The notes below the pieces were generated by a model. It had not been told where the DNA came from. It searched no databases and worked only from the letters and a program-made list of their open reading frames with translations. Below are positions 1,906-4,491 of a stretch of 4,491 bases of DNA, in pieces; within the stretch, counting starts at the first letter, position 1; each line of letters starts with the position of its first letter. Source of the stretch: a virus (lineage: Duplodnaviria > Heunggongvirae > Uroviricota > Caudoviricetes); IMG/VR virus record IMGVR_UViG_2526164628_000009. One strand, 5' to 3'. The position numbers were made by a program, and so were the translations under genes.

Positions 1906-3015
1906 ATGACCGATACCACCATGCAATTGCTCAGTCAGGGCACAGACCCCGTGAAAATGCCGGATTTTGATATTCTCGCGGAGGGTAAAACGCTGTCAGG
2001 CGTGGCAGAGCGCCTGATGAGCCTGTCACTGACCGACAACCGGGGATTTGACGCGGACCAGCTCACCATCACGCTGGATGATGCGGATGGTCAGTTGCAG
2101 CTACCGCCACGGGGCGCGCGCCTGACGGTTCTCATTGGCTGGAAAGGAGAACCGCTGACAGAAAAAGGCACTTACATTGTTGATGAAATCGCTCACGAAG
2201 GACCGCCGGACAGGCTGACTGTTTCAGCCAGAAGCGCAGATTTTCGGGATGAATTTAACGTTAAACGTGAGGTGTCCTGGCATGATGTGACCGTTGAGCG
2301 TGTGGTATCCGCCATCGCTCATCGGTATGGTCTGAAACCGCAAATCAGCGAAATGCTGATGGATATCGAAATCGACCACGCCGACCAGACCGAAGAAAGC
2401 GACATGTCCTTCCTTACGCGCATGGCGGAAATGCTGGGCGCAATCACCACGGTAAAAAGCGGTAATCTGTTATTCATTATGCCAGGCGGTGGCGTGAACG
2501 CACAGGGCCAGCCGTTGCCATCGTTCGCCATCACGCGCAGCAGTGGCGATCGCCATCAGTTCCGCATTGCTGACCGCGAAGCGTATACGGGGGTACGCGC
2601 TTACTGGCTTGATCTTAATTACGGGAAAAAGAAAAAAGTCAGCGTGAAACACCGCAAACCGCCAAAACCCAAAAAGGAGAAAAGCAGCAGCCGCGAAGGT
2701 GATTATATGGAAGGCGCGGAAGGCAATGTGTTTGTGTTACGCAAGACTTATCAGAACGAGCAGGCAGCAAGACGCGCAGCGGCGGCAAAGTGGCAGCAGC
2801 TACAACGCGGAGCCGCATCATTCTCCATCACGCTGGCATGTGGTCGTGCAGAACTCTACCCCGAAATGCATGGCACGGTAACAGGATTTAAAAGCGAGAT
2901 TGATAATCAGGACTGGATTATTGCAAAAGCCGAGCACACCATCGATAACAGCGGCTTTACCACGCAGCTTGAGCTTGAGGCAAAAATCCCGGAATGGATA
3001 GCAGAAACAGAGTGA
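1906..3015 (+). CDS. D: P2-like phage tail protein D (gpD, late control gene D family)
   Basis: The ORF track gives 1774..3015, but the upstream extension has no RBS. The ATG at 1906 is preceded by GGGAGGG at about -7 to -13. The 369-aa product has the gpD-like C-terminal half (AYTGVRAYWLD, a Lys-rich linker, NVFVLRKTYQNEQAARRAAAAKWQQLQRGAASFSITLA) and lies directly upstream of ogr as in P2. Confidence 0.88.
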   Translation: MTDTTMQLLSQGTDPVKMPDFDILAEGKTLSGVAERLMSLSLTDNRGFDADQLTITLDDADGQLQLPPRGARLTVLIGWKGEPLTEKGTYIVDEIAHEGPPDRLTVSARSADFRDEFNVKREVSWHDVTVERVVSAIAHRYGLKPQISEMLMDIEIDHADQTEESDMSFLTRMAEMLGAITTVKSGNLLFIMPGGGVNAQGQPLPSFAITRSSGDRHQFRIADREAYTGVRAYWLDLNYGKKKKVSVKHRKPPKPKKEKSSSREGDYMEGAEGNVFVLRKTYQNEQAARRAAAAKWQQLQRGAASFSITLACGRAELYPEMHGTVTGFKSEIDNQDWIIAKAEHTIDNSGFTTQLELEAKIPEWIAETE

Positions 3016-3057
3016 GCAACTTAGAATAGCAGCAGCACCACGTTAAGGGAGGTCGCT

Positions 3058-3318
3058 ATGTTCCGTTGTCCGCTTTGTGGCGCATCTGCCCGTATCCGCA
3101 CCAGTCGTCCGGAAAATGATTCAAACACCGTGCGGCAAAAGTATTACCAGTGTAACAACCTGGAATGCGGCGTATGCTTCTCAACACTGGAAGCTTTCCA
3201 TAAATTCACATCAAAACACACCTCCGGCGTTCACTCTTCAGAAGGTATCCCGTGGCATGAGCTGCCAGCTTCACACAGGGGAAACAATCAGATGAGTTTG
3301 CCTTTACCTCAGAATTAA
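3058..3318 (+). CDS. ogr: Ogr/Delta-family zinc-finger late transcription activator
   Basis: 86-aa ORF starting MFRCPLCG...RTSR...YYQCNNLECGVCF, matching the CPxC...C-x4-C zinc-finger layout and N-terminal MFHCPLC...ARTSR signature of P2 Ogr and 186 B as I remember them. Strong RBS (AAGGGAGG) upstream. It is about 14 residues longer than the 72-aa P2 Ogr I recall. Confidence 0.85.
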   Translation: MFRCPLCGASARIRTSRPENDSNTVRQKYYQCNNLECGVCFSTLEAFHKFTSKHTSGVHSSEGIPWHELPASHRGNNQMSLPLPQN

Positions 3319-3509
3319 CAGGCAGAATTGCCGGAGTAACAAAAAAGCGATAGATTACGCGCGGGTGCCTTTCGGCTGATGGTCGGAGGGAATACCCGAA
3401 GGCCAGATGTGGAAAGGCCCCGGAAAACATTTCTGTTTAACCGAGGCCCTAACATATCTACCTTAAGCAAGTGATAGGTTAGCGCCTCTCCAACAAAGGA
3501 GCAAGCGCT

Positions 3510-3650
3510 ATGTCGCAAAAATCGCTTACGGCCATCACGTTCTGCGTGACGGTAATCCTCATCATCTGGATGCTACACGGTTCGCTGTGTGAAATACGGA
3601 TGAGCTTCTGGGGAGCGGAGTTTGCGGCGTTCTTACAGTGTAAGCAGTAA
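3510..3650 (+). CDS. Hok/Gef-family type I toxin (small membrane-active host-killing peptide)
   Basis: Absent from the ORF track, probably below its length cutoff. ATG at 3510 is preceded by AAGGAG (3496..3501). Hand translation gives 46 aa, MSQKSLTAITFCVTVILIIWMLHGSLCEIRMSFWGAEFAAFLQCKQ, with a single N-terminal transmembrane helix followed by the SLCEIR motif and the E-x-AAF motif characteristic of Hok/Gef/RelF peptides. TAA stop at 3648..3650. Confidence 0.8.
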   Translation: MSQKSLTAITFCVTVILIIWMLHGSLCEIRMSFWGAEFAAFLQCKQ

Positions 3651-3659
3651 GGAAACCGC

Positions 3660-3681
3660 GACGGGGGAGCAATCCCCCGTC
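3660..3681 (+). other. Stable stem-loop in the hok-like 3' UTR (9-bp GC-rich stem, GCAA tetraloop)
   Basis: GACGGGGGA (3660..3668), loop GCAA, then TCCCCCGTC (3673..3681), a perfect inverted repeat. It is not followed by a U-tract, so it is probably an mRNA stability or folding element rather than a terminator. Confidence 0.6.
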
Positions 3682-3738
3682 AATCGGTTGCTAAGGTTGG
3701 CTGAAGTGGCACCCTATCTCACAGACATGAACAACAAA

Positions 3739-3770
3739 CCCGCAGCGTAAGAACTGCGGGTTTTCTTTTT
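3739..3770. terminator. Rho-independent terminator, plausibly bidirectional, between the convergent hok-like gene and the minus-strand cargo gene
   Basis: CCCGCAG (3739..3745), 8-nt loop, CTGCGGG (3754..3760), then TTTTCTTTTT (3761..3770) on the plus strand. On the minus strand the same stem is followed by TTTGTTGTT, so it could terminate transcripts from both directions. Confidence 0.75.
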
Positions 3771-3838
3771 GGAACTATCACTAGCTAGTGTACCGTTAAC
3801 GGCACATAATGCTCGCACAACAAACCTGTTAAAAGAGA

Positions 3839-4120
3839 TTACTCAGCATTCTCCTGCTTCCATTGCCGGATCATTTCATCGGTAACATCACCCTCATAAC
3901 ATACCACGTCATACCCTCCATTACGGCTATATGCACTGCGTCCACCACATCTACTACCATTCCTTGCATGATTATAAGGACACGCACAATTGCCTGGATA
4001 AGATTCAATGGATTCTTTAATTATTTCTTTTTTGATCTGAGCATCAGACTTTCCTGTTGCTGCATATCCGCTAAAAGATACTAAACAAAGGCAGATTGCC
4101 ATTAATAAACCACATCGCAT
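3839..4120 (-). CDS. Small exported cysteine-rich protein of unknown function (predicted signal peptide, about 70-aa mature part)
   Basis: The 131-aa ORF-track entry starts at a TTG with no RBS. The more plausible start is the ATG at 4120..4118, giving 93 aa: MRCGLLMAICLCLVSFSGYA|ATGKSD..., with a basic n-region, hydrophobic core and an AxA-like cleavage site. The mature part has four Cys (GNCACPY...SRCGG...VVCY). The gene is clearly more AT-rich than the flanking phage genes. Start choice and function are uncertain. Confidence 0.5.
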   Translation of the reverse strand: MRCGLLMAICLCLVSFSGYAATGKSDAQIKKEIIKESIESYPGNCACPYNHARNGSRCGGRSAYSRNGGYDVVCYEGDVTDEMIRQWKQENAE

Positions 4121-4264: not shown

Positions 4265-4491
4265 TGGATTTGCCCCTATATTTCCAGACACCTGTTATCA
4301 CTTAACCCATTACTGGCCTGCTGCCGCAGATATTCCCGTGGCGAGCGATAACCCAGTGCACTATGCGGATGCCATTCGTTATAATGCTCGAACGCCTCTG
4401 CAAGGTTCTTTGCTGCCGTTAACCCGTCTGGTTTAGGCATGATACTGATGTAGTCACGCTTTATCGTTTTCACGAAGCTCTCTGCTATGCC
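4265..4491 (-). mobile_element. IS2 (IS3 family) insertion sequence, terminal 227 bp, truncated by the window edge
   Basis: From 4265 the plus strand reads TGGATTTGCCCCTATATTTCCAGACACCTGTTATCACTTAACCC, the reverse complement of the IS2 terminus (...GGGTTAAGTGATAACAG.TGTCTGGAAATATAGGGGCAAATCCA) as I remember it. The adjacent minus-strand frame encodes the IS2 OrfB C-terminus. Confidence 0.85.
4276..4491 (-). CDS. insD: IS2 transposase OrfB (InsD) C-terminal fragment; the 5' part lies beyond the window
   Basis: The minus-strand frame is open to the window edge: [71 protein letters not shown]. The [15 protein letters not shown] block is the typical IS3-family integrase-core C-terminus. The ORF-track M at 4473 is a GTG inside this frame, not a true start. 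Confidence 0.8.

Follow-up and report, generated by a model that had tools for sequence, protein, structure and literature searches.

A probable mok-less hok/sok-type cassette next to ogr in a P88-like Escherichia coli prophage

The window analysed here, a stretch of 4,491 nucleotides from the Caudoviricetes record IMGVR_UViG_2526164628_000009 of IMG/VR, comes from the end of an E. coli prophage that is P88-like and belongs to the P2 family. We found that bases 3319-3509 are likely to form the control leader of a self-standing hok/sok-type cassette, a type I toxin-antitoxin unit spanning 3328-3770, and we are fairly confident that this cassette is a moron at the ogr end of the prophage. The element is of a well-known kind, Hok/Sok, unusual only by missing the mok helper frame, and is probably a mok-less variant; as a hok/sok leader the region is ordinary. 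Its family identity, the positions of its elements, their conservation and the absence of mok are established by sequence, homology or folding.

Identity, spread and promoter of the cassette

The spacer between the end of ogr (3318) and the ATG of the Hok/Gef ORF (3510) is 191 bp long, as the preliminary description of this DNA had given it. The encoded toxin matched Pfam PF01848 (HOK_GEF) with 30.1 bits, above the gathering score of 22 (E 3.7e-7), and PHROG 251, a family named 'MokW-like' (E 2.5e-23), and it is 45% identical to K-12 HokA. The best match in NCBIfam was the HokA equivalog NF007290, yet with 35.8 bits the cut-off of 89 was not reached. RefSeq labels identical copies of the toxin 'Hok/Gef family protein'. 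On the hok strand, the hok-leader model 'sok' of Rfam (RF01794) aligned over its full length (1-157) at 3363-3520 with 47.9 bits (E 8.7e-9), which is below the gathering score of 59; five or six relatives scored 42-51 bits, and an R1-like positive control reached 87.2 bits, also on the hok strand. The full-length match upstream of a HOK_GEF protein agrees with the earlier proposal of a hok-type leader.

For all counts we used 75 distinct cassettes among the matches listed, sampled by a pattern inside the hok coding sequence from E. coli genomes and IMG/VR; they are mostly from E. coli prophages and closely related. Among these 75 listed cassettes, Hok was exactly 46 codons long in 74, its dN/dS was 0.11-0.52 with clades up to dS>1 apart, and conservation at the three codon positions of hok was 0.87/0.94/0.83. 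Copies of the same cassette were found to follow ogr or lom, to lie between gpJ and a tail-fibre gene, or to adjoin ykgM/rpmE. About a third of the complete E. coli genomes (1755/5426) carried it, with up to 9 matching places per genome. When genome contigs were scanned for a 25-nt pattern of the leader, 3 loci matched, of which two are probably on contaminant contigs. In the RefSeq and phage records inspected, only the Hok ORF was marked, while the sok gene and the mRNA elements were unannotated; their coordinates are now supplied (Table 1). We found no literature on hok together with ogr and P2-like phages, and none on the 46-aa Hok type, for which only hokX and hokA turned up. P88-like prophages would have, next to ogr, a self-contained module for addiction or for the timing of lysis.

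The promoter hexamers and spacing noticed earlier (TTGCCG-N17-TAGATT) are present, and only their coordinates needed correction by one base, from 3327-3355 to 3328-3356. Homology among cassettes of the four unrelated genomic contexts begins at the -35 box, so that the proposed promoter coincides with the conserved start of the cassette. Conservation was 0.88-0.90 within the hexamers versus 0.57 upstream of the -35, where the sequences of the different contexts are unrelated. The spacer was 17 nt in 72 of the 75 listed cassettes, and the TA-A-T positions of the -10 were invariant in 7 relatives found by BLAST. The -10 stops 6 nt before G3363, the first base of the Rfam model; in the R1-like control, the mapped +1 of R1 aligned to model position 2. 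By consensus both promoters are weak, the hok promoter matching at 8/12 positions and the predicted sok promoter at 6/12. A consensus promoter scan of 3000-3900 called no promoter, because the hexamers of both are too weak for its 9-of-12 rule, and promoter support therefore rests on conservation. The loose pattern TTG-N20-TA-N3-T occurred twice in the window versus 2.0 times expected by chance, and the two matches are the hok promoter on the plus strand and the predicted sok promoter on the minus strand (3476-3504), both conserved in homologues. Taken bare, the listed motifs are not beyond chance; their significance comes from context.

These data bear on whether hok lacks its own promoter and is expressed solely as the 3' part of the late-gene transcript of ogr, with the hexamers as chance matches. 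No terminator was predicted between the end of ogr and 3363, so some read-through is likely, and the low consensus score and the silence of the scanner would fit this explanation as well. However, where the cassette lies behind lom, gpJ and ykgM/rpmE, with no ogr present, it still has this -35, the 17-nt spacer, this -10 and GGGTGCC as its start, conservation falls away upstream of the -35, and the perfect complementarity of the 5' and 3' ends starts exactly at 3363. Since the cassette has the same promoter wherever it is placed, read-through from ogr as the sole source of the mRNA is very improbable. A candidate Ogr-dependent late promoter (TGT-N12-ACA near -55) was rejected: only TTT-N12-ACA (3303-3320) is present, and it is absent from the other contexts.

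Fold-back elements and the predicted sok gene

Table 1. Features of the cassette (positions in the window; counts refer to the 75 listed cassettes)
Feature	Position	Strand	Basis or remark
hok promoter -35, TTGCCG	3328..3333	+	Homology onset; TTGC near-invariant, majority fraction 0.88
hok promoter -10, TAGATT	3351..3356	+	Conservation; 17-nt spacer from -35
Predicted hok mRNA 5' end (start 3363 or 3364) and tac element (GGGUGCCUUUC)	3363..3373	+	Rfam position 1; conservation 0.96
31-codon ORF, judged incidental	3379..3474	+	No SD; begins 16 nt from predicted 5' end
19-codon uORF, SD GAAGG 3398-3402, frame overlapping hok, closed by TAA 3464-3466	3407..3466	+	Vestigial mok-like frame or short uORF
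Predicted Sok-like antisense RNA, about 58 nt, start 3468, 3' end uncertain	3411..3468	-	Fold, hairpin conservation, position
ucb-like box (GAAAGGCCCC); partner tac (processed mRNA) or CCGAGGCC arm (full-length mRNA)	3412..3421	+	Inverted repeat I3
GAGGC, equivalent of R1 mok SD, without following start codon	3443..3447	+	Rfam alignments of window and R1-like control
Predicted Sok-target hairpin of processed mRNA	3443..3488	+	GAGGC:GCCUC, CUAAC:GUUAG; loop 3459-3472 complementary to Sok 5' tail
Long-range helix, 5' arm	3460..3475	+	Partner 3683-3697; predicted in full-length fold
Predicted sok promoter -10, TAACCT	3476..3481	-	Identical in 73/75; conservation 1.00, highest in cassette
Local hairpin predicted to sequester hok SD	3480..3510	+	Anti-SD CUCUCC 3486-3491 vs AAGGAG 3496-3501; in every MFE fold
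Predicted sok promoter -35, TTGCTC, overlapping hok SD of other strand	3499..3504	-	TTG kept in 73/75
hok, 46-aa Hok/Gef toxin, HokA-like	3510..3650	+	Pfam, PHROG, HokA identity, conservation
Stable 3'-UTR hairpin, likely 3' end-protecting hairpin of processed mRNA	3660..3681	+	Role by analogy with R1
Long-range helix, 3' arm	3683..3697	+	Partner 3460-3475; predicted in full-length fold
fbi-like fold-back element, GGCACCC 3708-3714 and extension	3700..3714	+	Pairs kept in 67-74/75
Intrinsic terminator of hok mRNA	3736..3770	+	10-bp stem then T run; common to ykgM/rpmE copies

The sequence and the folding models point to a tac/fbi fold-back with an alternative tac/ucb pairing. GGGTGCC at 3363-3369 and GGCACCC at 3708-3714 are a perfect 7-nt complement, and 3364-3373 is 90% complementary to 3412-3421. 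Pairing of the two mRNA ends, which the preliminary description had named as a point to be checked by folding, is predicted for the full-length hok mRNA, whose MFE structure (-178 kcal/mol, z -7.9) is closed by fbi. Across the 75 listed cassettes, the tac/ucb pairs were kept in 59-75 and those of an alternative ucb pairing (3416-3423 with 3441-3448) in 49-75. The long-range helix contained nine pairs with compensatory changes, and the 3'-UTR hairpin four, its 9 bp being kept in 74-75 cassettes. The outer 6 pairs of the anti-SD hairpin were kept in all 75, and the outer and middle pairs of the Sok-target hairpin in 63-75. When forced, the latter conformer lay +2.1 kcal/mol above the MFE in mRNA cut at 3683 (range +2.1 to +5.4). 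Nowhere in the leader is variation greater than in the target loop and its 5' arm (conservation 0.74). The inner stem of the Sok hairpin, like the long-range helix and the 3'-UTR hairpin, shows compensatory changes; most conserved helices are invariant rather than covarying, and they could therefore be kept for other reasons, including the overlapping antisense gene. Two further candidates were set aside. The MFE helix 3405-3411/3453-3459 (AGAUGUG:CAUAUCU) was poorly kept (16-69 of the 75) and was not relied on, and a YUNR U-turn motif in the target loop, present in 73 of the 75, holds too little information to count as evidence.

An antisense RNA had been expected in this region from the first description, and a conserved candidate minus-strand promoter followed by a conserved hairpin does lie where R1 and hokA have sok. 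The predicted promoter (TTGCTC-N17-TAACCT, 3504-3476) kept its 17-nt spacer in 70 of the 75 listed cassettes, with TTGCTC, TTGCCT, TTGACT and TTGTCT as variants of the -35. The predicted RNA would consist of a single-stranded 5' tail and a hairpin, read from the complement of 3416-3448, with UUUCC after it; the calculated folding energy of the RNA is -22.7 kcal/mol (z -3.4). The pairs of this hairpin are conserved among the 75, and its inner stem carries the compensatory changes mentioned above. The terminator scan did not call the hairpin, which is followed by UUUCC only, as a terminator. The positions of both RNA and promoter are equivalent to those of the R1 and hokA sok genes, and the sequence indicates that the leader holds, 5' of the toxin ORF, a putative cis-encoded sok gene together with a promoter for it.

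From analogy with R1 and from folding models we infer transcription, 3' processing, Sok action and mok-independent translation, in the following order. The sigma-70 promoter of the cassette would start an hok mRNA of about 408 nt at about G3363. In the full-length RNA, tac (3363-3377) would pair with fbi in the 3' UTR (3699-3714) and ucb with the CCGAGGCC arm, and the hok SD would be locked in its local hairpin; we propose that the mRNA is therefore inert and hard for an antisense RNA to reach. Slow 3' trimming back to the 3660-3681 hairpin would remove fbi, whereupon the 5' end would pair with ucb (3412-3421) and free GAGGC for GCCUC (3484-3488), a pairing that would expose the Sok target loop and the hok SD. 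The minus-strand promoter would make a short unstable antisense RNA starting at about 3468 and ending at about 3411, and its pairing with 3411-3468 would return the mRNA to the SD-closed form and mark it for RNase III. Sok would probably control the hok ribosome-binding site through this structural relay.

We calculated opening energies in silico, all folding energies given here being thermodynamic predictions only. The predicted energy for opening the Sok target dropped from 14.9 to 4.9 kcal/mol on truncation. For the hok RBS, the models gave 14.9 kcal/mol at full length, 10.6 after truncation and 16.0 after truncation with 3411-3468 masked. The direction was identical in 11/11 clade representatives, and a sliding-mask control peaked exactly at 3411-3468.

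Upstream reading frames and the absence of mok

In plasmid R1, Hok cannot be made unless ribosomes translate mok as far as the hok SD (PMC9841398), and it is this translation that Sok blocks; by the R1 rule the hok gene of the window would be silent. In the Rfam alignments, AUC at 3456-3458 aligned with the R1 mok AUG. No ATG, GTG or TTG ORF reaches the hok SD in the window, and such an ORF is absent from 42 of the 75 listed cassettes. Judged by sequence, the cassette does not have the three-gene architecture (hok, sok, mok) of R1. The mok-less state is common to several clades and to the inducible phage P88 itself.

The first description had listed a stop in the hok frame and two short ORFs, all of which we recovered: TAG at 3480-3482, a 31-codon ORF from ATG 3379 to TGA 3472-3474 with no SD, and a 19-codon ORF from ATG 3407 to TAA 3464-3466 with AAGG (3399-3402) four nt upstream. 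Its suggestion that either might be a leader peptide replacing mok was not supported, since neither is conserved in length or in reaching hok, their lengths running from 1 to 87 codons across the 75 listed cassettes. In our model, which has no mok frame, unlike R1, the two would be incidental or vestigial. The 67-aa minus-strand ORF (3315-3518, TTG start), which had been described as perhaps just marking the place of an antisense transcript, is only a by-product: it is not conserved, staying open in 18 of the 75 listed homologues. It is hardly conceivable that this frame or the 31-codon ORF encodes a real small protein. Both ORFs do exist in the sequence, but the 31-codon ORF, besides lacking an SD, varies from 4 to 87 codons and has lost ATG 3379 in 9 of the 75 listed cassettes, and neither ORF has a Pfam match.

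The 19-codon uORF might be the functional mok substitute of the 46-aa subfamily: Sok, binding just 3' of the uORF start, would block its translation, and translating ribosomes would melt the helices 3405-3411/3453-3459 and 3460-3475/3683-3697, allowing hok initiation 43 nt downstream. ATG 3407 is kept in 69 of the 75 listed cassettes and GAAGG in 68, so the uORF may matter; both are also present in 7/7 relatives that BLAST picked out independently of the leader. Its frame overlaps that of hok, some relatives have an intact mok-like ORF of 61-79 codons, the predicted Sok duplex (3411-3468) would start 2 nt past the ATG, within the ribosome footprint, and the predicted opening energy of the uORF RBS falls from 19.3 to 13.6 kcal/mol upon 3' truncation. 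However, the ORF ranges from 1 codon (ATG-TGA, in 11 cassettes) to 78 codons among the 75, overlaps hok in only 6, and ends over 20 nt short of the hok ATG in 60, and six listed cassettes with an intact Hok have no ATG 3407. In R1, toxicity is lost when mok carries nonsense codons ahead of the hok SD (PMC9841398). Moreover, this ATG lies inside the predicted tac/ucb hairpin and adjoins the Sok terminator, and it may therefore be conserved for structural reasons. On balance we regard a mok-like role of the uORF as unlikely.

A decaying, translationally silent hok gene, in which mok has been lost (TAA 3464, no start at the R1 position) and Hok is never made, would explain the same absence. In favour of this, the window has no upstream ORF extending to the hok SD, the R1 rule demands mok translation (PMC9841398), K-12 hok loci are reported inactive (PMC7232551; PMC1635323), and a single TAA separates the uORF from a 61-codon mok-like frame: AZ161-type relatives have TCA in its place, and their ORF ends 83 nt past the hok ATG. 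Against decay stand the constant 46-codon length and the dN/dS range of Hok, the retention of the promoters, tac, fbi, ucb and the sok -10, and the occurrence of the mok-less state in several clades and in inducible P88. Of 45 Hok homologues from chromosomes and mobile elements, 42 proved toxic on overexpression (bioRxiv 10.1101/2025.08.07.668861). We consider a dead locus unlikely.

A bolder reading, which we put forward tentatively, is that the 46-aa prophage Hok subfamily may be a mok-independent hok/sok variant whose toxin RBS is switched by a four-step RNA relay. The steps may be tac with fbi or ucb, ucb with the GAGGCC arm, GAGGC with GCCUC, and the anti-SD with the hok SD. It is conceivable, if somewhat doubtful, that Sok silences hok by reversing this relay from at least 27 nt upstream, without blocking a leader ORF. 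Equally tentative is the idea that the fast-evolving segment 3449-3468, containing the Sok 5' tail and the target loop, gives co-resident cassettes separate specificities.

The missing mok is the useful lead of this analysis: the cassette is widespread, and purifying selection maintains its Hok, with the frames upstream free to drift. Should cassettes of this kind produce Hok, RNA structure must be the sole means of antisense control. If this is true, the generality of the mok model would need revision, and the result would help to annotate the thousands of catalogued hok loci left mok-unassigned by recent surveys (bioRxiv 10.1101/2025.08.07.668861).

Comparison with known systems

The hok/sok/mok (parB) system of plasmid R1 is the type I toxin-antitoxin paradigm, and both it and the window cassette encode a Hok/Gef toxin. 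The window leader aligns over the whole Rfam model, and the tac/fbi fold-back, ucb, the GAGGC box and the GCCUC (dcb) box follow in the same order. The sok promoter lies at the same place over the hok SD (R1 TTGCGC-N17-TATCCT, window TTGCTC-N17-TAACCT), and the antisense RNA of about 60 nt in R1 (PMC9841398) resembles the one predicted here. In contrast to R1, the window has no mok, with AUC for the mok AUG and no ORF reaching the hok SD; its leader is shorter (hok AUG at about +148 versus about +175), its toxin has 46 rather than 52 aa, it is borne by a prophage rather than a plasmid, and it matches RF01794 below the gathering score, far from the 87.2 bits of the R1-like control.

The closest named toxin belongs to hokA/sokA of the E. 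coli chromosome, at the 45% identity given above. The two share the sok -10 TAACCT and the GGGTG...GCACCC complementarity of the ends. However, intact hokA keeps the SD GAGGCCCC-N4-ATG at the R1 mok position, and this ATG is in frame with hokA and opens a 70-aa ORF, whereas the window has no such start; hokA has no ATG at the equivalent of 3407, and the window toxin scores far under the HokA equivalog cut-off.

The experimental precedent in a prophage is hokW/sokW of the Stx2 prophage Sp5 in E. coli O157:H7 Sakai, shown to be a type I system, in which 71 nt of the 5' UTR can pair with the sokW antisense RNA, RNase III and Hfq are needed, and Hok is made on prophage induction and aids phage release (PMC8621323). 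Like the window cassette, it is prophage-borne and belongs to PHROG 251, but HokW, a toxin of 51 aa (MKQQKAM...), is HokD/Gef-like and its leader differs in sequence. A second, separate cassette of the 46-aa type occurs in the Stx phages as well, with 84% identity to that of the window.

In the type I systems tisB/istR-1 and zorO/orzO, no leader ORF is involved and the site of antisense action lies upstream of the toxin RBS. They are not homologous to the window cassette: their toxin fold-back design is another one, and their antisense genes are divergent, not fully overlapped. If the mok-less reading is right, the window cassette would resemble them in that its antisense RNA binds at least 27 nt upstream of the toxin SD and exerts indirect control via RNA structure or ribosome access.

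The leader, its toxin and the prophage setting

The 191-bp spacer between the ogr stop (3318) and the hok ATG (3510) had been described as a hok-type leader, and the Rfam search is consistent with this: model RF01794 ('sok') aligned over its full length to plus-strand positions 3363-3520 (E 8.7e-9; 47.9 bits, below the gathering score of 59), upstream of a HOK_GEF protein. Relatives of the window scored 42-51 bits, and the R1-like plasmid control 87.2 bits. Although named 'sok antitoxin', RF01794 represents the leader of the hok mRNA itself, in the sense orientation, so strand calls made from it can mislead; in the control (L004 432-603), the match is to the strand that encodes hok and extends as far as the hok AUG. 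The TAG in the hok frame (3480-3482) and the short ORFs listed for the spacer were also found.

The 46-aa ORF at 3510-3650 exceeds the gathering score of Pfam HOK_GEF (30.1 bits; threshold 22) and matches PHROG 251. Its nearest toxin is HokA (45% identity), which is also its best NCBIfam match at 35.8 bits, far under the equivalog cut-off of 89; the toxin is not a HokA equivalog. A 46-aa hok cassette sharing 84% identity with the window is also present in Stx2-converting phages (L003 1501-1875; Stx2a phage records); it is distinct from the HokW of 51 aa that has been published.

The window corresponds to the right end of a P88-like prophage of E. coli (Xuanwuvirus, P2-family). Many complete E. 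coli genomes contain identical DNA, phage P88 is 98% identical, and the Hok ORF is the sole annotated part of the cassette in the records inspected. Copies 73-95% identical follow ogr in other P2-like prophages or follow lom; in lambdoid prophages copies lie between gpJ and a tail-fibre gene, and further copies lie beside ykgM/rpmE. In every context homology starts at the -35 hexamer and ends at the fold-back element or a shared terminator. Of 5426 complete E. coli genomes, 1755 have the cassette at least once, and a single genome can have as many as nine matching places. The cassette is a mobile, self-contained unit.

Downstream on the minus strand, a 93-aa Cys-rich ORF (3839-4120) matches PHROG 27544 (E 7e-58), a family of unknown function; its match to a moron family labelled 'membrane associated protein' is weaker. 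RefSeq labels the ORF hypothetical, and it is possibly a second moron. In strain AR_0013, an identical hok cassette is followed by this same gene and then by tRNA-Leu/Cys/Gly and pgsA. The window ends within an IS3-family transposase gene (4276-4491, minus strand; Pfam rve_3, E 3e-14), of which it takes in the C-terminal part. An exact 25-nt E. coli hok-leader pattern was also seen in assemblies bearing the names of unrelated genera, Vagococcus sp. WN89Y (L011 5837-5861, 226-kb contig), together with an identical Hok, and Xanthomonas pisi (L010 219-243, 857-bp contig); both contigs are probably contaminant or mislabelled.

Window positions of genes, promoters, short ORFs and RNA elements
Feature	Position	Strand	Details
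Tail tube and sheath genes		-	
gpD		+	Pfam Phage_GPD
ogr	ends 3318	+	Pfam Ogr_Delta
hok promoter	-35 3328-3333, -10 3351-3356	+	predicted start G3363 or G3364
tac	3363-3373	+	predicted mRNA 5' end
31-codon ORF	ATG 3379 to TGA 3472-3474	+	no SD
19-codon ORF	ATG 3407 to TAA 3464-3466	+	AAGG four nt upstream; frame overlaps hok
ucb	3412-3421	+	90% complementary to tac
Sok-side arm pair	3416-3423 / 3441-3448	+	hairpin; opposite strand, same hairpin in predicted antisense RNA
GAGGC	3443-3447	+	aligned with R1 mok SD
Long-range helix	3460-3475 / 3683-3697	+	predicted fold
Predicted Sok RNA	start ~G3468, ~58 nt	-	single-stranded 5' tail, hairpin, then UUUCC
sok promoter	TTGCTC 3504-3499, TAACCT 3481-3476	-	17-nt spacer; predicted RNA start ~G3468
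GCCUC	3484-3488	+	counterpart of R1 dcb box
CUCUCC	3486-3491	+	anti-SD
hok SD AAGGAG	3496-3501	+	8 nt before ATG; shut in local hairpin 3480-3510 in all MFE folds
Stable 3'-UTR hairpin	3660-3681	+	predicted fold
fbi GGCACCC	3708-3714	+	perfect complement of tac
Terminator	3736-3770	+	

Promoters and conservation across 75 cassettes

The motif TTGCCG-N17-TAGATT noted in the preliminary description is present, one base to the right of where it had been placed, at 3328-3356. The consensus promoter scanner did not call the hok promoter, and the loose pattern TTG-N20-TA-N3-T has two matches in the window, where chance alone would give 2.0; the two are this motif and minus-strand 3476-3504. As bare motifs the listed features are unremarkable, and the position of the two matches is what counts. 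At the place of the second, R1 has TTGCGC-N17-TATCCT and hokA has TTGATT-N17-TAACCT. Since no terminator lies between ogr and the cassette, late transcripts that read through may contribute to expression; read-through as the sole source of expression is very improbable. Within the hok promoter spacer, an A-tract (3341-3346) has a core AAAA (3343-3346) that does not vary among the seven contexts found by BLAST, and the rest of the spacer is variable; the tract could be a spacer or curvature effect, or a U-tract for longer antisense transcripts.

We compared 75 distinct cassettes among the matches listed, anchored by a 22-nt pattern; because it sits inside the hok CDS, the leader columns are unbiased. 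Upstream of the -35, conservation was 0.57; within the promoter hexamers and tac it reached 0.88-0.96. No element is better conserved than the sok -10 (1.00), which has the same sequence in 73 cassettes, and in each promoter the 17-nt spacer is kept in at least 70. Within the leader, conservation is lowest (0.74) at 3449-3468, which comprises the hairpin loop and the stretch complementary to the 5' tail of Sok, a variability that fits a specificity determinant. The tac/fbi and tac/ucb pairs and the Sok, target and anti-SD hairpins are kept in most or all cassettes. Compensatory substitutions were seen in several CDS helices as well as in the long-range helix, the 3' hairpin and the inner stem of Sok. 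Many helices of the leader do not vary at all, a pattern that agrees with the structure and is no proof of it. The 67-aa minus-strand ORF proposed to mark an antisense transcript does exist (3315-3518, TTG start), but its frame is open in just 18 cassettes.

Predicted folding and a proposed relay without mok

The full-length RNA (3363-3770) folds at -178 kcal/mol (z -7.9) with both ends paired, the pairing that the preliminary description had proposed to look for. Its expectation that fold-back elements and an antisense RNA act in the leader is likewise supported, at the level of prediction, by the complementarity of tac, fbi and ucb and by the conserved minus-strand promoter. The predicted Sok RNA folds at -22.7 kcal/mol (z -3.4). 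A 12-nt inverted repeat (3466-3477 / 3775-3786, 92% complementary), linking the Sok start region to just past the terminator, is probably due to chance, since it is not conserved in the AZ161 relative.

In the R1 model (PMC9841398), pairing of tac with fbi keeps the full-length mRNA inert. By homology, the full-length cassette mRNA would be inert in the same way, and 3' trimming would free tac for pairing with ucb, whereupon the antisense RNA would gain access. When the RNA was cut back to 3683, the opening energy of the Sok target (3449-3468) fell from 14.9 to 4.9 kcal/mol, and an R1-like open conformer (tac/ucb plus GAGGC:GCCUC, hok SD essentially free) lay 2.1 kcal/mol above the MFE. The hok RBS opening energy was 14.9 at full length, 10.6 after truncation and 16.0 with 3411-3468 masked as if Sok-bound; both shifts kept their sign in all 11 clade representatives, and a sliding 58-nt mask had its largest closing effect exactly at 3411-3468. 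These folding results favour a relay in which Sok would control the hok RBS via RNA structure, followed by RNase III cleavage, with no mok step. The energies are thermodynamic predictions; transcription, processing and Sok action of the cassette are inferred.

Short ORFs and comparison with classical loci

The two short ORFs had been put forward as leader peptides replacing mok, and neither proved conserved, given their variable lengths and missing start codons. ATG 3379 is absent in nine of the 75 cassettes and opens 4 to 87 codons elsewhere. ATG 3407 is present in 69 (its GAAGG in 68) and missing from six, and its ORF ranges from 1 codon (ATG-TGA) to 78, overlapping hok in only six. In AZ161-type relatives this frame is a 61-codon mok-like ORF, closed in the window by one TAA (TCA there). 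It is unlikely that the 3407 uORF is a short functional stand-in for mok. In 42 cassettes, the window included, no ATG/GTG/TTG ORF extends as far as the hok SD.

Under the R1 rule, a locus without mok would be predicted silent. Such silencing is equally doubtful here, as every other element is retained and Hok is under purifying selection with or without an upstream frame: its length is exactly 46 codons in 74 of 75 cassettes, dN/dS between clades is 0.11-0.52, and codon-position conservation is 0.87/0.94/0.83.

At the R1 mok start position, the window has AUC (3456-3458) and then TAG 3480. The intact hokA locus retains an SD and ATG there, in frame with hokA; in ATCC 25922 hokA (L156 323-535) this ATG gives a 70-aa N-terminally extended ORF. 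In the R1-like plasmid pMTY1886 (L004 544-603), the ATG at this position precedes that of hok by 57 nt, in the same frame and with no intervening stop. In both loci the ATG is in frame with the toxin, so the mok frame is variable even between classical loci. A survey (bioRxiv 10.1101/2025.08.07.668861) and T1TAdb leave mok largely unassigned. Because mok is absent, the cassette falls outside the three-gene definition drawn from R1; on sequence grounds, its toxin domain, leader homology, fold-back design and antisense gene position place the region in the hok/sok family. As the regulatory leader of a known system it is ordinary, with one non-trivial feature, a widespread and apparently mok-less architecture, which merits experiment.
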